19,284 nt of DNA, taken from the IMG/VR virus record IMGVR_UViG_3300027807_000001, positions 1 through 19,284 of that record; one strand, 5' to 3'. Position numbers and translations under genes: made by a program. Shown here one piece after another: positions 3,682 through 14,374 of this stretch; position 1 is the stretch's first letter, and every line of letters begins with the position of its first letter. A model generated the notes under the pieces. The model saw only the letters and a list, made by a program, of their open reading frames with translations. It made no database searches and was not told where the DNA came from. The stretch is from a virus. Its lineage: Duplodnaviria > Heunggongvirae > Uroviricota > Caudoviricetes.

Positions 3682-4665
3682 TTAAGATACCTGGATCTGA
3701 CAAATTCCCTTCGCGTAGCGGATGACGAAACCTACATCCTCCCAGATTGCGAAGACGTCTGCGAACTTGTTAGAGTCCTTAAGAGTCTCGACGGATACGT
3801 CAGTACGAACCGCCATGACTCCGAGGTAATCAGCAGGAGCAAGGACATAGACAGCGCTCGTCGGAACGATAATGTCCTCAAGAACTTCAACGCCCCAGAT
3901 GCTTCCGACGCGGCCAGCCTTAAGGGCCTGATCCTGGAAGTTAGGCGCGAAGATTCCGGCTCCACCGGTACCAGATACTGCTGTGTTGAACAGCATTAAG
4001 TCTTTGCCGCGGAACGGGTGCATAAAGATCTTGTTAGCGACCAAGAGCTTGCCGCGAAGGTCAACGATACCCTCGACCAAGGACTCCTGCATTAGGCGGC
4101 CAGCGCCTACTGAAGAAGTAACAACCGTAGCGTTGTTGTTTGCCGCAGTCGTAGCAGAGCCCTGGTAAACCAACGAGTTTGTCTGAGGCTGGTTAGTAAG
4201 ACTTGCTGCGTACTGAAGAAGTGCAAAGCCACGACCATCTTCTTGGAACTGAATAGATGCCTTACCGCGTTCCTGCGCACGGTTTAACACGTCAAACTTA
4301 CGGAAGTTTGACTCGTTCCAGCGAACCATAGGACGAACAGTGATCGGAGAAGTTTCGATGCGGATACGATCTGATCTAACTTCCAACTGCTCTGGAAGAC
4401 CCTCGACGGAAATACTTGCCGCCGGTACATCCAAGTCTGCGTCAAATACGGCTTCCTCACCCAGAGCTAACTTATAAGTCTGATAGATCTGGCGAATGCG
4501 TCCCTCAAACAATAGGTCGCGCTTCAGCGGTGAAAGCATCTGCTGCGCGATCTTCTGAAGTCCGCCCGGTGAGTTCATAAGGCGGGATAGACGATCCTCT
4601 ACTTGCGAAGAGGTGAGGTTGATACCATAAACCTGCTCATCGGCAGGCGTTACTTTAGGTTCCAT
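3682..4665 (-). CDS. Major capsid protein, HK97-like fold (327 aa)
   Basis: Size, position after protease/scaffold and decoration genes, and strong RBS TAAGGAG. Typical large-phage MCP pattern (KIAQQMLSPLKRDLLFEGRIRQ...LGEEAVFDAD; IFMHP; GSIWGVEV; C-terminal WEDVGFVIRYAKGICQIQV). Confidence 0.9.
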   Translation of the reverse strand: MEPKVTPADEQVYGINLTSSQVEDRLSRLMNSPGGLQKIAQQMLSPLKRDLLFEGRIRQIYQTYKLALGEEAVFDADLDVPAASISVEGLPEQLEVRSDRIRIETSPITVRPMVRWNESNFRKFDVLNRAQERGKASIQFQEDGRGFALLQYAASLTNQPQTNSLVYQGSATTAANNNATVVTSSVGAGRLMQESLVEGIVDLRGKLLVANKIFMHPFRGKDLMLFNTAVSGTGGAGIFAPNFQDQALKAGRVGSIWGVEVLEDIIVPTSAVYVLAPADYLGVMAVRTDVSVETLKDSNKFADVFAIWEDVGFVIRYAKGICQIQVS

Positions 4666-5307: not shown

Positions 5308-8214
5308 TTATAGATTACGCCCTTTTTGCGATCCCATATTACCGAATACGTCATTCAGCCATTTGTCATCTTGGCTGTGTTCATCAAATTGCAATCGGAA
5401 GGCTTTCTTAAGAACTCCTCCAGAAGGAGGCGCAGCAGGAGTACGTCCTTTAACTCTAGATACAGTCATCGCAAATGCCTTGAGTGTAGCGTCTTCCATC
5501 GCAAGAAGATCACGACACTGCTTATCGATAGCCTTCTTAAACGCTGCAGCTCGTGCATCGAATAAAGGCTTACCGTTCGCGATCTCTTCCTGTATATCTG
5601 CTTCGTCTGCAGCGATAAGGTCCTTTTCAACCATCTCACTGACAATCGTCTGGCAGCGCTGGGCCTTCGCACGGAGAGACGCTTCTAGCTTAAGCTGGGC
5701 CAACTCGGCCTCAAGCTCCTGCTCTCTAGATGAGACACTAGGAAGATCGACCTCAACAGTCGCTGTCTTTTCCATAGCAGGCTCTTCTTTCTTAGGCTCT
5801 TCTGCTTTAGCTTCTGCAGCGGGAGCTTCTGGCTCGCCCTTGTCATCCTTCTTTTCCTTCTTAGCTGCCTTCTCCGCTTCCTTAGCGGCAGCAGCTTCTG
5901 CCTTTTCGGCTTCCTTGGCAGCTTTCTCATCTTCCTTCGCCTTCTCTTTGGCAGCCTTTTCAGCTTCCTTAGCCTCGGCAGCCGCAGCCTTCTCCGCTTC
6001 CTTAGCGGCAGCTTCCCGGTCTTTTTCCAAGGCCAATGTCGCTTTCTCGACAGCTTTCTGTAAAGATTCTAGAGGCTTCTTGAGTTTATCACCAGGTTCC
6101 ATTGATTCGATAGCTTCGTTCATCCACGCAAGCTTCTCCTCATCGGACATCTCTGCAAGAGGCTTATCACCCTTGGGGGCTTCCATCTTCTCTGCGGGTG
6201 CAGCCTTCTCCTCTTTCTTGTCCTTCTTTTCCTTATTATCTTCCTTGGGAGCGTCTGCAGGCATATCCATAGGTGGCATGTCTGCCGCAGGAGCGTCTGC
6301 TGCCTCCGCCTTAACTTCAATCTTACCAGCAGCATCCTCCGCAGCGTAAGTAGCAAACTCCGACTTCACCTTAGGACCTCCGCCGCCAACGTGCTTGTAC
6401 TCAGATTTACCCATAGATTTAGATGTAGGGTAGGCATCTCCCTTTCCACCAGTAGGACCCGCAGATCCAGGGAAAGCCCCTCCAGACATATCAGTTCCTT
6501 CAGGAGAGGTCTTCATTTTAGCACTGGCGGTAGGAGCAGCAGGAGTATACTCATCCTTGCCCACGCTCTTCTGGCTTGGCCACTCATCGCCTTTACCAAC
6601 CTGTCCACGCGCGTCAGCAGCTTCAGTGTAAATTGTTGCATTCGTCGCAAGCGCAACCTTCTTTAATCCATCTGTCTTTACACGCTGAAGCAGTGCTTCA
6701 CCGTAGACAGTAGAGGATGCATATGCGCTCATCTCATTAACTTTGTCGCCCCAGATATCATTTAAGGAAGCTTTAAGAACAGGCTTACCATCTGCCGTGA
6801 CCACCCAGTAAGAGTTTTTGATTTCTGGCTTTGAGACGAAGATTGCCTTGAGCTTACGTGCCTCAAGCTCCGCTTTCTTCTCTTCTTTGGCCTCTTCCTT
6901 CTTAGCTTCTGCTTTCTCTTCTTTCTTCTCTTCTTTGGCCTCTTCCTTCTTAGCTTCTGCTTTCTCTTCCGCCTTGGACTCTGCGGTCTTAGGCATGGAC
7001 GCTAGCTCTGCCTTTTCGTGAGCAAGAGCTTCTTCTGCAGGAGGGAGAGCATCCTTAAGGAGCTCATCAACCTTCTTCATATCTGCGACATCTTTTTTCT
7101 CACCCGCTTTCTCACACTTCATGCATGATTTATCTTCTGCGCAGCCGCACTCTTTCTTAGCTTGGACCATAGGAGCTACAGCAGGAGTAACGGGGGCATC
7201 GACGGGAGAAGTTGGCTGAGGTAAGCCATTGGCTTTCTTCATGTACGCCTGAAGATCAAGAAAGTCTAGTGCGGATAACTTCTCTTTAAAAATCTTTGTT
7301 AATCGAGATTCTACAGTTGATTCATCAGCGGAAGCTTTCTTATCTTCCTTCTTAGCTTCTGCTTTCTCTTCTTTCTTGCATTTAGCGCACTCTTTGCTGC
7401 TAGTGCACCCACACTCCTTCTTAGTCTCTACATCTAGCTTTGGAGCGTCTGTAGTAGACGCTGCTTCTAAATCATTTTGGGATGCCATTGTTAAAATATC
7501 CTCCAAATCTTTGATCACGTCAGCAGAAGGCTCTTTCGCAACGCGATCCTTTAGCTGTGCAATGATCTGCACTATCTTTGCATTGTTCCACGCAGGAACG
7601 TTTACGACAGAAAGTTCCGTGAAATTCAAACCTCGGTTAACTGCAAACGCTTTAAGCCGCTGACCTTTCTTAATATTGCATTCCGGAAGATCAGCTTCAA
7701 CGACAAATTCTTTTCCGAGCCCAGAAGACATATGGCGACACTTGGGGTCTTGGTCAGAATAAATAGTATGGGCACAAATAGAGCATTGAGAACTTTCAAC
7801 GCTGCAGCCCATGGAGCAAGAGTCAAGAATACCTGACTCGATTTGGCGGGCTAGTTCGGGGTGGGCAACTGCATCAATCTTAGCGAGACATTCGATGTAC
7901 TTTTCACCAGATTGATCATCTACGACAGGATAAGCGTCAAGAACTTTACCGATAGCATTTCGGGGGTCGCTAGAGTTATGATTAAGGAAGAGGTTACGTC
8001 CTACGAAAGAGGTGTAGCTCTTTAATAAATGATCCCAAGGGAAATAATCTCCGTTTCCATTGGGTTCGTCGGCTTGAATTGCCTTTGACGCAAAATAGAG
8101 AAATTCTCCCTTCTTAGCGTTAGAGACAGCAGCTACGATTGGGCGACCCGGGGCTACCTCTGTAAGGCTACCTGCCTTTCTGATTTGTAAATTAATGCCC
8201 TGCTTGTTTAGCAT
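5308..8214 (-). CDS. Prohead maturation protease fused to a long scaffold/core region (968 aa)
   Basis: Residues ~36-220 carry HK97-gp4/assemblin-type (clan SH) motifs LFLNHN (His), ILDSCSMG (Ser), a CSIC...CRH Zn-type insert and FTELSVVNVPA. The rest is Lys/Glu/Ala-rich with a predicted coiled coil near the C-terminus. Canonical position between portal and MCP. Confidence 0.88.
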   Translation of the reverse strand: MLNKQGINLQIRKAGSLTEVAPGRPIVAAVSNAKKGEFLYFASKAIQADEPNGNGDYFPWDHLLKSYTSFVGRNLFLNHNSSDPRNAIGKVLDAYPVVDDQSGEKYIECLAKIDAVAHPELARQIESGILDSCSMGCSVESSQCSICAHTIYSDQDPKCRHMSSGLGKEFVVEADLPECNIKKGQRLKAFAVNRGLNFTELSVVNVPAWNNAKIVQIIAQLKDRVAKEPSADVIKDLEDILTMASQNDLEAASTTDAPKLDVETKKECGCTSSKECAKCKKEEKAEAKKEDKKASADESTVESRLTKIFKEKLSALDFLDLQAYMKKANGLPQPTSPVDAPVTPAVAPMVQAKKECGCAEDKSCMKCEKAGEKKDVADMKKVDELLKDALPPAEEALAHEKAELASMPKTAESKAEEKAEAKKEEAKEEKKEEKAEAKKEEAKEEKKAELEARKLKAIFVSKPEIKNSYWVVTADGKPVLKASLNDIWGDKVNEMSAYASSTVYGEALLQRVKTDGLKKVALATNATIYTEAADARGQVGKGDEWPSQKSVGKDEYTPAAPTASAKMKTSPEGTDMSGGAFPGSAGPTGGKGDAYPTSKSMGKSEYKHVGGGGPKVKSEFATYAAEDAAGKIEVKAEAADAPAADMPPMDMPADAPKEDNKEKKDKKEEKAAPAEKMEAPKGDKPLAEMSDEEKLAWMNEAIESMEPGDKLKKPLESLQKAVEKATLALEKDREAAAKEAEKAAAAEAKEAEKAAKEKAKEDEKAAKEAEKAEAAAAKEAEKAAKKEKKDDKGEPEAPAAEAKAEEPKKEEPAMEKTATVEVDLPSVSSREQELEAELAQLKLEASLRAKAQRCQTIVSEMVEKDLIAADEADIQEEIANGKPLFDARAAAFKKAIDKQCRDLLAMEDATLKAFAMTVSRVKGRTPAAPPSGGVLKKAFRLQFDEHSQDDKWLNDVFGNMGSQKGRNL
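5867..6012. repeat. Two exact 26-bp copies (5867-5892, 5987-6012) encoding AAAKEAEKA in the scaffold
   Basis: gccttctccgcttccttagcggcagc occurs twice, 120 bp apart. Confidence 0.85.
6873..6968. repeat. Perfect 48-bp x2 tandem duplication (KEKAEAKKEEAKEEKK-type 16-aa unit), with a third exact 35-bp partial copy at 7343-7377
   Basis: ctttcttctcttctttggcctcttccttcttagcttctgctttctctt at 6873-6920 and 6921-6968; tcttccttcttagcttctgctttctcttctttctt recurs at 7343-7377. Confidence 0.9.
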
Positions 8215-9610: not shown

Positions 9611-12541
9611 CTAGGCTTGTGGGGCTTCTGGTGCAAAAGGCGCCTCTGGCATCGAGGGAGTCTCGGGCATTACAGGGCCACCTGTTTCGACAGGAGATGT
9701 GGACGGAGCAGCCATTTCTGGTGAAGAGCTTTCTTCACCAGCAGGCACAACAGGAGGGGCACCTGCTCCAAGAGACCCTGCGCCTGGGAGCCCTTCAACA
9801 GCCCCTTGCGGCAGTCTCTTATCTCCCTTATCGTAGATGGTGCCGCGTTCTTTTTCAAGGCGAATACCTTCGGTGGTGTAATCAAGGTCAGGGAATTTAC
9901 CAAACAGCGTCTCGGTACTAACAACACCAGCCTTGTACATATCCCAATATAGTTTACGCTCTTGATCTCTCTCTTCTAGGTCTAAGGACTTATACCAGGA
10001 GATAGTAGGGAGAATATACTTCTTTCTTCCATTGACGATTTTAAATAAGTCATTCTTGACAGCAAGTGGTCTAAAGAAATGCTTAATCATCCAGTTCTCA
10101 AACTGGTCTCTAATCGCTTTATAGACCATCATGAGTTTATGGAGAGACATCGTGCGGACGTTTGAAAAGCTAGGACCTTCACCCAAGATTAAGTTCTTGT
10201 TTACGCCCAGACCTACGAGAATTTGATCATGAATATACTGATATTCATTAGTAACCGGGAAGTAAGATCTTCCAGATGTAGAGAGACTCTCGTACTTAAC
10301 TACCGGAGGAAATACAAGCGAGAATGGAGGATTCTGTACCGCTAAGCTAATCGTATTCTTAAACGTTTCGAGTTCTTCTTGAGTAGGCCAGATACCTTGC
10401 GCAGCATCTCCAATCTGCCATAACTCAATAGGAAATACATAACGTTGCGCAAAGGCAGCCTGCGCCAATCGAATCCAATCCTGATAAATTAAGATCTTAA
10501 ACAACGACTGAATAATAGGCGTTCCTCTAGTCGCTGATGGGTCTGTAATACGTCCAATTAGACTTACTGATTCAGAATCTAGCGGTATAAGTCTATTATT
10601 TGCGATAGACTCTTTAACCACATCCGGAATACCTTCTTGGCGCTTGATCGCAGTCGGATCTGAAGACTTAACAATCTGCTTAAGTTCTTCGGTGGGAACT
10701 AATTCAAAATGTGGAGCGTCTTCGAAGATTTCTTGACGGACTTCAACAAGTTCAGGCTCAAGAAGAATAAAGCTAGTCCATCTCCACATATCGTCAGGCC
10801 CCTTTTCCATATTACCAAATGGAATGGCCTCTCCGAACTTCCAATAAGAAAGACTCGCCTTACGAATAAAATCGTAAAGATCAATCGTATCACTGAACGC
10901 TACATCTTTATAAAATTCAGTTACCGAGGGATCTTCTGTGATGATGTCAAACTTAGAGAAAGGATAGTCTGCATGCATCGTGATGATGCTCTGGATATAC
11001 GCTTCAAGATTGAAAAAAATCCTGCAATTGTGTACCAGTACCGGTGCCACGTAAGTATGATCTTCTGTCTGCAGATCGTAGCCCCAGGCGTCTTCCGCAT
11101 AAGTAGTTACTTCGCGAACAGGGAGATAGAAGTTCTTGTCATCTTCTAAATATTTAGTAACTCGCTTCTTTGTTTTGGTCGCCTCGAGATTTTCATATCC
11201 ATCAAAAAGACGACCACACATCTCTCCCGTAATTGTTATATAATAAACAAAAGGAGAGGCGTTTAAAATTGGGGCATCCTGACCGCCGATTTTACCAAAT
11301 TTATAAACTTTACCTTTTGTGTCATACTTAGTCATCGAGCCGAGTACATTTAATTTAGTTAGAAGTAATTGTGTTTGGTACGCAAGCGTTTCGGATACGG
11401 TAGCGAAAGAAATCACAGGAAGCCCCTTTGCATTTTTAGTAAAAGTGCCATCCCCCTTAAAAAGACCCTGCAAAAATGCTTTTACATTCTCGGGAGTTGA
11501 ATTCATTAAGAAGGAGGGGATCTTTTTGTTACGAGCTCCGCGACCAAACTCTTCTTGAAAGATATGCGCTTCTTTTGTGTGCATTCTTAATTGAATTGCA
11601 TTTGCGCAGTGGGAAGAATCTCTTACATACGCAGTACTTGCAAAATTATTCTTTACGATCTCGGCTAATCTATCAAACTCTCCTCGCTCGTCAATATTTC
11701 CCGTTAATCGAATAGTATCTTTATAAGAAAATCCTTCCGCAGCGAACCATCCATAAAAATAAGCTGTTTCTACAGAAACAGGTAGCACTCCTTCGTTTTC
11801 TTCTACGTGTTTAAACTTAGGGTATACCACGAAATCGCCTACTTCCAACTTCTTCGGAGATATCCACTGAACCAAGGAATTCGACAGACCTTTTTCTTGG
11901 TCTGTCATTACAGTTTGTAAGTATCCATCAATTTCAATTTGCGGAATTGATAAAATGTTTGTATCCGCCGCTTCTTTAATCTTTTCGCAAAGTTGCTTAT
12001 AAGCGTATTGTCCTGCGCCGACCCACTTTTTACCTTGCTGAGGCTGCGGACGCTTAATAGCCGTAATTGGATGGTAAGCTCCCAAAGTGAACTCAGGGAG
12101 ACATTGTACTTTAAGAGTAGTCCACTCATTTCCCGCTTCATCAGAAGCAGTGTACATCTTCTTAGAGACCGCTATTACTTTCTGCCACTTACCTGAGGTA
12201 GAAAGAACTTTTTCGCCTGCACAAATATTTTTTATTTCCTTAGCACCTTCTTCTGTAAGGACGAGAGATTCTCCACGGTACATCCATTTTAATATTTCCT
12301 GTCTTGACTTCGGCAGCAGGAAGCTCTCTACGGTCAGCTCGGGGCTATAAAATTGGGAGGGAGTATTTGTGGTTGGATACGCGCCGCCTGCGATAAATCC
12401 ACCCATCCCAGAGGCGCCTGCGTTTGCAGTCTTATCTATCGATCCAGCCTTACTTATTGCGCTCTTATATGCGCTTGTAGATCCTGAAATATACGAACCG
12501 GTCTTTGCTATCCTTGGTGTGCCTTCTTTCCGTTTTCCCAC
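9611..12541 (-). CDS. Portal protein, intein-containing precursor (976 aa; 557 aa if spliced)
   Basis: Between terL and protease; GTG start with GGAG RBS. The rejoined extein LPKSRQEILKW|CRIFFNLEAYIQSIITMHADYPFS and downstream motifs (RGTPIIQSLFK, QRYVFPIELWQIGD, ILVGLG...ILGEG) fit large-phage portals. Ends TAG TAG. Confidence 0.85.
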   Translation of the reverse strand: MGKRKEGTPRIAKTGSYISGSTSAYKSAISKAGSIDKTANAGASGMGGFIAGGAYPTTNTPSQFYSPELTVESFLLPKSRQEILKWMYRGESLVLTEEGAKEIKNICAGEKVLSTSGKWQKVIAVSKKMYTASDEAGNEWTTLKVQCLPEFTLGAYHPITAIKRPQPQQGKKWVGAGQYAYKQLCEKIKEAADTNILSIPQIEIDGYLQTVMTDQEKGLSNSLVQWISPKKLEVGDFVVYPKFKHVEENEGVLPVSVETAYFYGWFAAEGFSYKDTIRLTGNIDERGEFDRLAEIVKNNFASTAYVRDSSHCANAIQLRMHTKEAHIFQEEFGRGARNKKIPSFLMNSTPENVKAFLQGLFKGDGTFTKNAKGLPVISFATVSETLAYQTQLLLTKLNVLGSMTKYDTKGKVYKFGKIGGQDAPILNASPFVYYITITGEMCGRLFDGYENLEATKTKKRVTKYLEDDKNFYLPVREVTTYAEDAWGYDLQTEDHTYVAPVLVHNCRIFFNLEAYIQSIITMHADYPFSKFDIITEDPSVTEFYKDVAFSDTIDLYDFIRKASLSYWKFGEAIPFGNMEKGPDDMWRWTSFILLEPELVEVRQEIFEDAPHFELVPTEELKQIVKSSDPTAIKRQEGIPDVVKESIANNRLIPLDSESVSLIGRITDPSATRGTPIIQSLFKILIYQDWIRLAQAAFAQRYVFPIELWQIGDAAQGIWPTQEELETFKNTISLAVQNPPFSLVFPPVVKYESLSTSGRSYFPVTNEYQYIHDQILVGLGVNKNLILGEGPSFSNVRTMSLHKLMMVYKAIRDQFENWMIKHFFRPLAVKNDLFKIVNGRKKYILPTISWYKSLDLEERDQERKLYWDMYKAGVVSTETLFGKFPDLDYTTEGIRLEKERGTIYDKGDKRLPQGAVEGLPGAGSLGAGAPPVVPAGEESSSPEMAAPSTSPVETGGPVMPETPSMPEAPFAPEAPQA
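11027..12283 (-). mobile_element. Intein with LAGLIDADG homing endonuclease (419 aa), atypical Met at position 1
   Basis: Block A MYRGESLVLTEEG..I..I..GEKVLSTSGKWQKV; block B LGAYHPI; ISPKKLEVGDFV; LAGLIDADG blocks AYFYGWFAAEG, KKIPSFL, AFLQGLFKGDG, TVSETLAYQTQLLL; block F GYDLQTEDHTYVA; block G VLVHN followed by Cys+1 at 11024-11026. Confidence 0.92.
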
Positions 12542-12777
12542 GATTGGTCTCCATAAGAGGAAGTAATTTTGCTTCTAAGGTCTGTTCTTTGTGCCTCTAA
12601 CTTAATTTTTTGTTCTTCAAGTCTAGCGCGAGCATAAATCATACTGTCGAGAGTATGCCCCAGATCATCAATATCCAGATCTTGTGAATAGAGCTGATCG
12701 TATAGCCCGCTAAATACGTCAATTAAATGGGTAAGATGGTCAATTCCATCTGTTACAGCACCAAGGGGATCAGTCAT
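12508..12777 (-). CDS. Hypothetical acidic coiled-coil protein (89 aa) between terL and portal
   Basis: ATG 12777 lies 1 nt after the terL stop and the gene overlaps the portal start by 34 nt. Heptad-like C-half. Confidence 0.65.
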   Translation of the reverse strand: MTDPLGAVTDGIDHLTHLIDVFSGLYDQLYSQDLDIDDLGHTLDSMIYARARLEEQKIKLEAQRTDLRSKITSSYGDQSWENGKKAHQG

Positions 12778-12778
12778 A

Positions 12779-14374
12779 TTAAAGGTACCGTTTATCTCCG
12801 CCGGGTCTACGCTGCACAATGCTAGTGTTAGCAGCGGACACACCGATGCGGAAAGTGGACTGTACTTTATTGAAGGTCATGTTCTTATCGCACGCCCAGA
12901 CAGCAAGAAGATCGGACATACATCCATCATCATGTAACCCCGGAGGCGCAGTGATCTTATCGTTAATACCGACACTCACGATTCTCTCAAGCGCTAACCA
13001 TTGATGATAATGTTTGCGCATAATCTTGTCCCTTTCAACGTGCTCCATCTTTGGGTACTTAACACGCCCAGCTTGCAATTCAAACTGAAACTGATTCGCC
13101 ATTGCGTTCTTATAGTTCTTGTGGGATGTAGGGTCAGTCGTTGAAAATATTACACCGGCCACTGGTATTTTTAACCGCTTGAACATCTCCACGGACGTAA
13201 TACCTACGTTACTGTAGTCAACACATCCAAAGTCGCAAGGAAATAATCCTGTTTGAGGGTGAACAATGCCCGCGATTTCTTCCGCTTGCGCGATCGTTTC
13301 TCCGCCTTGCCATTCCCGTGACCACACCCTCTCTTTCATTCCATCATCTCGGCGTCTCCAGATTGAAAGAGCAGTAAAGTCCAAATCATGTTTTCCAGGA
13401 ACTAACGTACCAGAGCTTGTATCTAGACCGAAGAAATAATGCTCTCCGGCCCTGCCCTGCATAAGCATATCGTGAGTACCGACCAACGTTTCCGGCTCAT
13501 CTCCCCGCAGGAAGGTATTAATGTCATCCATCCAGATCATACCATACTGGGTATTGAACTCCATCTCAGTCATATCACCGTCGTAATGGATTTCTGGATT
13601 ATAGGGGAACATCGCTACCTTAAGAGCTTTCGGCATACGATCCAATACCATAGTAGGATATTTACCTACAACGACTTCTCCGGTGCTAGCCACTGTTTGT
13701 AATTCTTTGTAGCCGGGCTCTAGGAGAATAGGGGCGTGTGCCCAGTCATGAACTAAAAATTTGTACTTATCGTCGGAGTAACTCGCGTAGAAGTGATTTT
13801 TAAAGAGAGGAATACCTATCTTTATTAACTTAGCTATCTTCTTAGATCCAAGCATCGGGATAATACGCTCTGACATAGACGCATTAGATACCCGATGTGC
13901 CTCGTCAACAACCACCACAGAAAAGTGCCAACCTTCCTGCAAGGATGTTTCCGCGGCAGACAGCGCTAAGATATTAGATCCATTTTTAAATATGATCTTT
14001 TCGTTAGTTGTACGATCCCAGTCAATCTGATCTTTGAGTGGAGATACAAAGAGAATTTTCTTGGTTTCCCCAACAAGGCGGGTTGCCTGATCTGCTCTAG
14101 GGCCAAATAGACCCACATCCAGCCCAGGATTGTCCTCACACATCTTTATAAGACCGATACAGACAGAAAAACTTTTTCCGGATCCTCGAGCACCCAGAAT
14201 ACCCAGGTAATTGATATGAGGATTACAGAGATTAGATATAATCTCTTCCTGGTTACTTTTGAGTTCTACATTTAAGAAGTTCTTTGCCCAGCGAACAGGG
14301 TCGTTTACTTGGAGAGTATATTCAGTTGCTTTTTGTAACAACTGCTTCCAAACATCATCTTCAAGTTTTCCCAC
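12779..14374 (-). CDS. terL: Terminase large subunit (531 aa)
   Basis: Walker A GARGSGKS, Walker B VVVDEAH, C-terminal RNase H-like nuclease acidic motifs YFFGLDTS, GCVDYS and HDDGCMS. Upstream of the portal gene. Confidence 0.95.
   Translation of the reverse strand: MGKLEDDVWKQLLQKATEYTLQVNDPVRWAKNFLNVELKSNQEEIISNLCNPHINYLGILGARGSGKSFSVCIGLIKMCEDNPGLDVGLFGPRADQATRLVGETKKILFVSPLKDQIDWDRTTNEKIIFKNGSNILALSAAETSLQEGWHFSVVVVDEAHRVSNASMSERIIPMLGSKKIAKLIKIGIPLFKNHFYASYSDDKYKFLVHDWAHAPILLEPGYKELQTVASTGEVVVGKYPTMVLDRMPKALKVAMFPYNPEIHYDGDMTEMEFNTQYGMIWMDDINTFLRGDEPETLVGTHDMLMQGRAGEHYFFGLDTSSGTLVPGKHDLDFTALSIWRRRDDGMKERVWSREWQGGETIAQAEEIAGIVHPQTGLFPCDFGCVDYSNVGITSVEMFKRLKIPVAGVIFSTTDPTSHKNYKNAMANQFQFELQAGRVKYPKMEHVERDKIMRKHYHQWLALERIVSVGINDKITAPPGLHDDGCMSDLLAVWACDKNMTFNKVQSTFRIGVSAANTSIVQRRPGGDKRYL

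Follow-up and report, generated by a model that had tools for sequence, protein, structure and literature searches.

A portal-protein intein without a residue-1 nucleophile in a 210-kb phage: class 2 by signature, unlike KlbA inteins in detail

We examined a 19,284-nucleotide stretch of DNA (hereafter the window), which forms the first 19 kb of the 210,348-bp Caudoviricetes record IMGVR_UViG_3300027807_000001, and characterized a 419-residue intein inside its portal gene that begins with methionine. The element is a LAGLIDADG intein, recently mobile, and its host gene is the only portal gene of this complete phage genome. Class 2 inteins are recognized by a signature, the presence of neither a position-1 nucleophile nor the Trp-Cys-Thr (WCT) triplet (Tori et al. 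2010, PMC2807308), and the window intein has neither. Judged by its sequence, it is thus class 2 by signature, and in detail it is unlike every class 2 intein characterized so far. The literature treats every class 2 intein described as a KlbA orthologue and gives them one common origin (PMC4031507, PMC3196547). Among actinophage inteins, a 2025 survey reported classes 1 and 3 only (10.1101/2025.01.02.630785), and our full-text literature searches turned up no class 2 intein outside KlbA.

Boundaries, splicing blocks and fold of the portal intein

The features on which the analysis rests are the following, in coordinates of the window.

11027-12283, minus strand: intein, 419 amino acids (Met1 to Asn419), delimited by exact presence/absence against intein-free proteins and a contig of sequencing run X6
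12281-12283, minus strand: first intein codon, ATG, so that Met stands where block A normally has Cys1 (alignment; contigs of runs X1 and X2 identical)
12245-12283, minus strand: block A, MYRGESLVLTEEG (alignment to 17 class 1 relatives)
12059-12100, minus strand: block B, LPEFTLGAYHPITA, with B7 Gly (12080-12082), B10 His (12071-12073) and B12 Ile
11729-11761, minus strand: LAGLIDADG motif 1, YFYGWFAAEGF (Pfam PF14528; G, A, E and G invariant)
11447-11476, minus strand: LAGLIDADG motif 2, FLQGLFKGDG (G-D-G invariant; PDB sequence match to the TliVMA intein endonuclease)
11048-11086, minus strand: block F, WGYDLQTEDHTYV, with F4 Asp (11075-11077, in GYDL) and His F13 present; invariant in the four members of the intein's clade
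11024-11047, minus strand: block G and Cys+1, APVLVHN/C, with G5 Val, G6 His, G7 Asn (11027-11029) and Cys+1 (11024-11026)
9611-12541, minus strand: portal gene, GTG start, precursor of 976 amino acids (PHROG 16240 portal, E 3e-30; homologues begin MGKRK at the same place)
12284-12541, minus strand: N-extein, 86 amino acids, ending ...FYSPELTVESFLLPKSRQEILKW (Trp-1), an end motif kept in intein-free and intein-bearing alleles
9611-11026, minus strand: C-extein, 471 amino acids, beginning CRIFFNLEAY, with the portal core and a Pro/Ala/Glu-rich tail

The ends of the intein are fixed by alleles that lack it. The precursor reads ...QEILKW/MYRGESLVLTEEG...APVLVHN/CRIFFNL, the insert occupying residues 87-505, and in nine close intein-free portals (68-89% identical) KW is joined straight to CRIFFNL. 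At the DNA level, a 29.5-kb contig from run X6, which belongs to another study, matches the flanks with 0-1 differences and carries six letters in place of 11021-12283, a net loss of 1257 nt, or 419 codons, exactly the size of the intein. These comparisons confirm the Trp/Cys junction, which the preliminary description of this DNA had proposed to check through homologues. A shifted junction that would use a Ser or Cys of the N-extein was considered and ruled out, as the intein-free proteins and the X6 contig fix both ends and leave no repeat ambiguity. Given that a near-identical phage without the intein exists, the element must have been gained or lost recently. At the homing site itself, Cys+1-Arg+2 is encoded by TGT AGA in the X6 contig and by TGC AGG in the window; these two synonymous changes could reflect co-conversion or target immunity.

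Alignment of the splicing blocks places Met in the Cys1 column of 17 class 1 relatives, which are more distant, full-length and all canonical (Cys1, T/SxxH in block B, a His-Asn end, and Cys or Ser at +1). The block B motif of the window intein reads GAYH, and HMMER aligns its block F to that of TliVMA residue for residue, Asp to Asp. The residues that the preliminary description had assigned (Met1, GAYH, Asp F4, Ile B12, Val G5, His-Asn/Cys+1 and both LAGLIDADG motifs) were all correct by this alignment, and so was its reading that a position-1 nucleophile is truly absent. Compared with class 1, residue 1 is not Cys, Ser or Thr and B7 is Gly, not Thr or Ser, with His B10 present. The absence of a position-1 nucleophile is shared with class 3, whose Cys F4, Trp B12 and Thr G5 are replaced by Asp, Ile and Val. 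Of the features that mark the KlbA type, Cys+1, His B10 and Asp F4 are present; Thr B7, Ala1, Ser G6 and orthology to the KlbA intein are not. The earlier statement that the intein fits none of the three known classes was therefore right in so far as it differs from all characterized KlbA inteins, and overstated in that the class 2 signature is present.

Pfam Hint models matched the intein only below threshold (E 0.017-0.12), and we therefore confirmed the fold by structure prediction, as had been suggested at the outset. The AlphaFold2 (AF2) model has a predicted local distance difference test (pLDDT) score of 83 and a predicted template modelling (pTM) score of 0.85, with the splicing blocks in high-confidence parts, and its top Foldseek matches are the TliVMA, PhoVMA and PI-SceI inteins (E 5e-22 to 1e-16, template modelling scores 0.62-0.74). 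The architecture is that of a Hint splicing domain interrupted by an extra helical region and a LAGLIDADG endonuclease, the latter domain lying at precursor residues 353-413 (Pfam PF14528, E 2e-11), with the acidic residues of both motifs kept (AEG and GDG invariant). TliVMA and PI-SceI (class 1; PDB 7qsu, 1ef0) have the same fold and the same order of Hint domain, DNA-recognition insert and LAGLIDADG domain; unlike the window intein, they start with Cys1 and carry Thr B7. Just before block B, a clade-specific 6-residue insertion gives the almost invariant stretch KKxYTxxDxxGNEWT (intein residues 41-55, about 12119-12163), which AF2 folds as an extended hairpin at lower confidence.

An unexpected residue in a single codon invites the suspicion of an assembly or sequencing artefact that hides a true Cys, Ser or Thr, and the preliminary description had pointed out that ACG (Thr) is one transition away from ATG. 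Such an error is scarcely credible here, even though the support consists of contigs and not raw reads, and both runs behind these contigs may be source samples of this very DNA. Separately assembled contigs from two moss-metagenome runs, X1 and X2, match the window over 10900-12600 without a difference; one of them is 46 kb long at depth 22.7, the other 3.9 kb at depth 7. In IMG, the same protein occurs with zero residue differences on contigs of genome length (210,348 and 210,340 bases). Moreover, the codons at position 1 of the three closest relatives at the same site are CAG (Gln), AAT (Asn) and CAG (Gln). Because these three inteins start with Gln, Asn and Gln, the comparison indicates that the absence of the nucleophile is a property of the lineage and not a slip in one sequence. 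The relatives also rule out a further candidate explanation, that Met1 is kept as a conserved internal translation start, since Gln or Asn stands in its place. In a survey of 222 Hint N-terminal matches from all proteins gathered, A1 was Cys in 195 and Ser in 1, and B7 was Thr in 199 and Ser in 5. A non-nucleophilic A1 and a Gly or Ala at B7 co-occurred, and did so at this portal site only, which sets the feature far from a chance pattern.

A nucleophile-less lineage at the KW/C site

The window intein belongs to a clade of four (clade b), together with P0004 (Gln1, 70% identical), P0015 (Asn1, 59%) and P0055 (Gln1, 50%), all inserted at the same site. Its members have Met, Gln or Asn as residue 1, Gly B7, His B10, Asp F4 and Val G5, end in His-Asn or Ser-Asn, and are followed by Cys+1; G6 is His in three of the four and Ser in P0055. 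P0004, which starts with Gln, was found in three sources and read on three contigs. Searches for further members in viral contigs, metagenome contigs and short proteins returned just these four.

Pairwise comparisons within clade b show saturated synonymous sites (proportion of synonymous differences, pS, 0.65-0.95). The proportion of nonsynonymous differences (pN) ranges from 0.04 to 0.24 for the C-terminal portion of the Hint domain and from 0.17 to 0.28 for the N-terminal one, comparable to or below that of the portal exteins. None of the four inteins departs from His B10, Asp F4, His F13 or Asn G7, and each is followed by Cys+1. Indeed, every intein-bearing allele at this site has Cys+1, where intein-free portals have Cys, Ala, Ile or Val. 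Taken together, these comparisons indicate that the splicing domain is under strong purifying selection and that this is a maintained lineage, not a dead copy. Additionally, conservation of the motif FYSPELT..KSRQEILKW-CRIFFNLE extends across the junction from one extein into the other, which argues that the exteins must be joined.

A second group of inteins (clade a: P0016, P0020, P0021 and P0129) occupies the same KW/C site. These inteins start with Pro (P0021 lacks its N-terminus) and have Ala or Gly at B7, Cys at F4, Thr at G5 and Ile or Val, not Trp, at B12, a class-3-like set without the full WCT triplet. Clade a resembles clade b in its site, in the absence of Cys1 and Thr B7, in Tyr B9, in TEDHT within block F and in its LAGLIDADG endonuclease. 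In contrast, its Cys F4 and Thr G5, indicative of an internal-Cys route, stand against Asp and Val in clade b, and the two clades are only about 28% identical. In a tree that included 10 amino acids of the exteins, each clade was monophyletic with 100/100 support and the relation between them was left open; once the exteins and residue 1 were removed, clades a and b fell together on one side of a branch with support 80/93.7. Clade a is thus the probable sister of the window's clade, and the grouping is suggestive of, although not decisive for, a single loss of Cys1 and Thr B7.

Candidate splicing routes

No Cys column is conserved across all four members of clade b, and wherever all four have a Ser or Thr in common within the Hint parts, the residue belongs to block A or to the clade-specific hairpin, or occupies a position also shared with class 1 relatives. 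By this pattern of conservation, the sole nucleophile left at the active site is Cys+1, and it is for this reason that we infer the class 2 route. Splicing by direct attack of Cys+1 is the reading towards which we lean, by a modest measure of confidence; both this attack and the very occurrence of splicing are deduced from sequence and model. Among the three options offered in the preliminary description, the class-2-like one is the best supported. Under this route, Cys+1, activated by Asp F4, would attack the carbonyl of Trp-1 directly, with His B10 polarizing the scissile bond at Trp-1. The attack would give the standard block G branched thioester, Asn419 would cyclize with the aid of His418, and an S-to-N shift would seal KW-CR.

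This scheme is modelled on the KlbA inteins, in which Cys+1 attacks directly and both His B10 and Asp F4 are needed (PMC4031507). The KlbA intein of Methanocaldococcus jannaschii and its archaeal orthologues (Southworth et al. 2000; Johnson et al. 2007; reviewed in PMC4031507) share with the window clade the absence of Cys, Ser or Thr at position 1 and of the WCT triplet, as well as Asp F4, His B10, the C-terminal Asn and Cys+1. P0055 also has the Ser G6 of KlbA, where the other three members have His. The route proposed here would be identical, with Cys+1 attack leading to a block G branched intermediate. However, Ala1 of KlbA contrasts with Met, Gln or Asn, which are bulky and variable, and the Thr B7 required in KlbA contrasts with Gly in all four members; KlbA is an archaeal mini-intein, whereas the window holds a 419-residue LAGLIDADG intein in a phage portal. 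Furthermore, the window intein groups with class 1 phage LAGLIDADG inteins and not with KlbA, and its nearest relatives also include the Pro1/Cys F4 clade. A class 2 route here would therefore have an independent origin.

Several points weigh against splicing by the class 2 route. KlbA requires Thr B7 and has a small Ala1, and a widened active site has been proposed as the enabling feature (PMC4031507); the window intein has Gly at B7 and a bulky residue 1. Class 1 inteins with a mutated residue 1 fail to splice, and Arsp-FB24, the sole earlier candidate outside KlbA without Cys F4, proved to be a pseudogene (PMC3196547). The lineage is small, with four members known. In two of these four, the portal open reading frame is interrupted downstream, within the C-extein. 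A single-base frameshift breaks the frame of P0055 near CCAAATAAAGC (L002 about 5740-5760), and in P0015 a premature stop lies about 80 nt short of the end of the contig (L003 about 5615-5640). Sequencing error or decay would each be compatible with these interruptions.

Some of these points lend weight to the possibility that the exteins are not ligated at all, either because the intein only cleaves at its C-terminus by Asn cyclization, which would yield a portal without its first 86 residues, or because it is inert, in which case the phage would be defective, reliant on co-infecting intein-free relatives, or tolerant of the insert. The loss of class 1 splicing when residue 1 is replaced, the fate of Arsp-FB24, the missing Thr B7, the two interrupted reading frames and the existence of a near-identical intein-free phage all fit such an outcome. 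Nevertheless, we regard it as unlikely. The Hint domain has been under strong purifying selection across a divergence large enough to saturate synonymous sites, none of His B10, Asp F4, Asn G7 and Cys+1 has been lost, and the four diverged members are all nucleophile-less, each with a different codon history. The genome is complete and has a single portal gene, and with one conserved motif spanning the junction, a portal without the N-extein is unlikely to work; cleavage at the C-terminus alone, raised in the preliminary description, is thus possible and yet disfavoured. The Arthrobacter sp. FB24 Arth_1007 intein (PMC3196547) resembles the window intein in having neither a position-1 nucleophile nor Cys F4, but it had also lost His B10, has exteins that total 66 amino acids, does not splice and is a single decayed copy. 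By contrast, the window intein keeps His B10, its host gene is essential, and conservation holds over the four diverged members of its clade.

Two further alternatives retain ligation and change its first step. An undescribed step, in which a Ser, Thr or Tyr hydroxyl, the carboxylate of Asp F4 or the hairpin KKxYTxxDxxGNEWT takes part, would account for a missing Thr B7 combined with a residue 1 that is bulky and variable, unlike that of KlbA, and it could draw on the invariant residues of the clade-specific insertion before block B or on intein position 40, which is always Ser or Cys. Most of the weight lies on the other side and makes this quite improbable: these candidates sit outside the blocks known to line the active site (A1, B7, B10, F4 and G6-G8), position 40 is variable in class 1 relatives, and such a step has no precedent, whereas the class 2 route is the simplest chemistry with the residues present. 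Class 3 in disguise, branching at some internal Cys that is not F4, is very improbable. Five Cys do occur inside the window intein, and one stands six residues ahead of B7; the preliminary description had drawn one of its options from these Cys. The probable sister clade, which shares the insertion site, carries the class-3-like set Pro1, Cys F4 and Thr G5. However, the internal-Cys option fails on conservation, as the Cys before block B is Gly in two of the four members, and the intein has none of Trp B12, Cys F4 and Thr G5. The known class 3 inteins (mycobacteriophage Bethlehem 'DnaB', Dra Snf2 and Msm DnaB-1; PMC2807308, PMC5222942) are like the window intein in lacking a position-1 nucleophile, in their variable residue 1, in a dispensable or absent Thr at B7, in their phage origin and in keeping His B10. 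They differ from it at B12, F4 and G5, where its Ile, Asp and Val would leave no block F branch point.

According to the review literature, what allows class 2 inteins, unlike those of class 1, to attack the N-terminal amide directly is not yet understood (PMC4031507). If direct Cys+1 attack holds for the portal intein, a second, unrelated class 2 lineage would provide an independent test case for this question, one that does without Thr B7, a residue believed necessary, and accepts Met, Gln or Asn as residue 1. Tori and Perler assumed that loss of Cys1 gave poorly splicing intermediates (PMC3196547), and the window lineage may bear on how inteins survive that loss and is a possible bridge to internal-Cys splicing, with the probable sister clade carrying Cys F4 as a natural comparison. 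On a tentative and more doubtful view, the inteins at KW/C would form an evolutionary series from Cys1 through the nucleophile-less but working Asp F4 clade to Pro1 with an internal Cys F4. The class 2 route would then have arisen twice, this time separately from KlbA and in inteins that have neither Thr B7 nor a small residue 1, as a viable stepping stone from class 1 to class-3-like splicing. An intein that needs no residue-1 nucleophile and leaves a Cys-only scar could also serve protein engineering.

The portal gene and other inteins around the site

The phage record has direct terminal repeats and is rated 100% complete by CheckV. The window carries a head module on the minus strand, with the large terminase at 12779-14374, the portal at 9611-12541, a protease/scaffold gene at 5308-8214 and the major head protein at 3682-4665. 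The whole 210,348-bp genome contains one portal gene and one intein. Portal PHROGs match the 976-residue open reading frame from residue 490 onward only, and a protein search returned more than 100 homologous portals. A tblastn search of phage GenBank records found distant portals only (Bacillus phage G at 31%, and actinophage portals) and no relative of the intein. The C-terminal tail of the portal (9611-9830, residues about 905-976) is low-complexity and rich in Pro, Ala, Glu and Gly, and differs in length and sequence between homologues.

The portal stretch around KW/C is a hot spot for inteins. Class 1 inteins lie 12 residues downstream (PYVQ/C) and two residues upstream (..EQ/CKW) of the site, the hot-spot set comprising P0027, P0034, P0039 and P0083, and P0127 and P0179. 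The portal of P0004 (L004 3001-7014, 1337 amino acids) has a second intein downstream, with a canonical Cys1, between ...GEGPSF and SNARTM. P0005 (943 amino acids, NCBI/Logan) represents a third type at KW/C itself, with Cys1, a TSNH block B, Asn F4 and an Asn-Phe-Gln end; its first residues, CYRGG, resemble the MYRG and QYRGG of the window's clade. In P0122 (1655 amino acids), a 745-residue insert at KW/C has Glu as its first residue. Of its two Hint matches, the first ends in Tyr-Ala and the second has Asp B10 and His F4, and the insert may be a decayed or nested pair. A contig of run X3, from another study, carries a relative that is about 10% diverged and matches the N-extein and the intein from codon 42 onward. 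Its first 41 intein codons (window 12161-12283) are equal in length and strongly diverged, which suggests mosaic exchange within the N-terminal Hint part.

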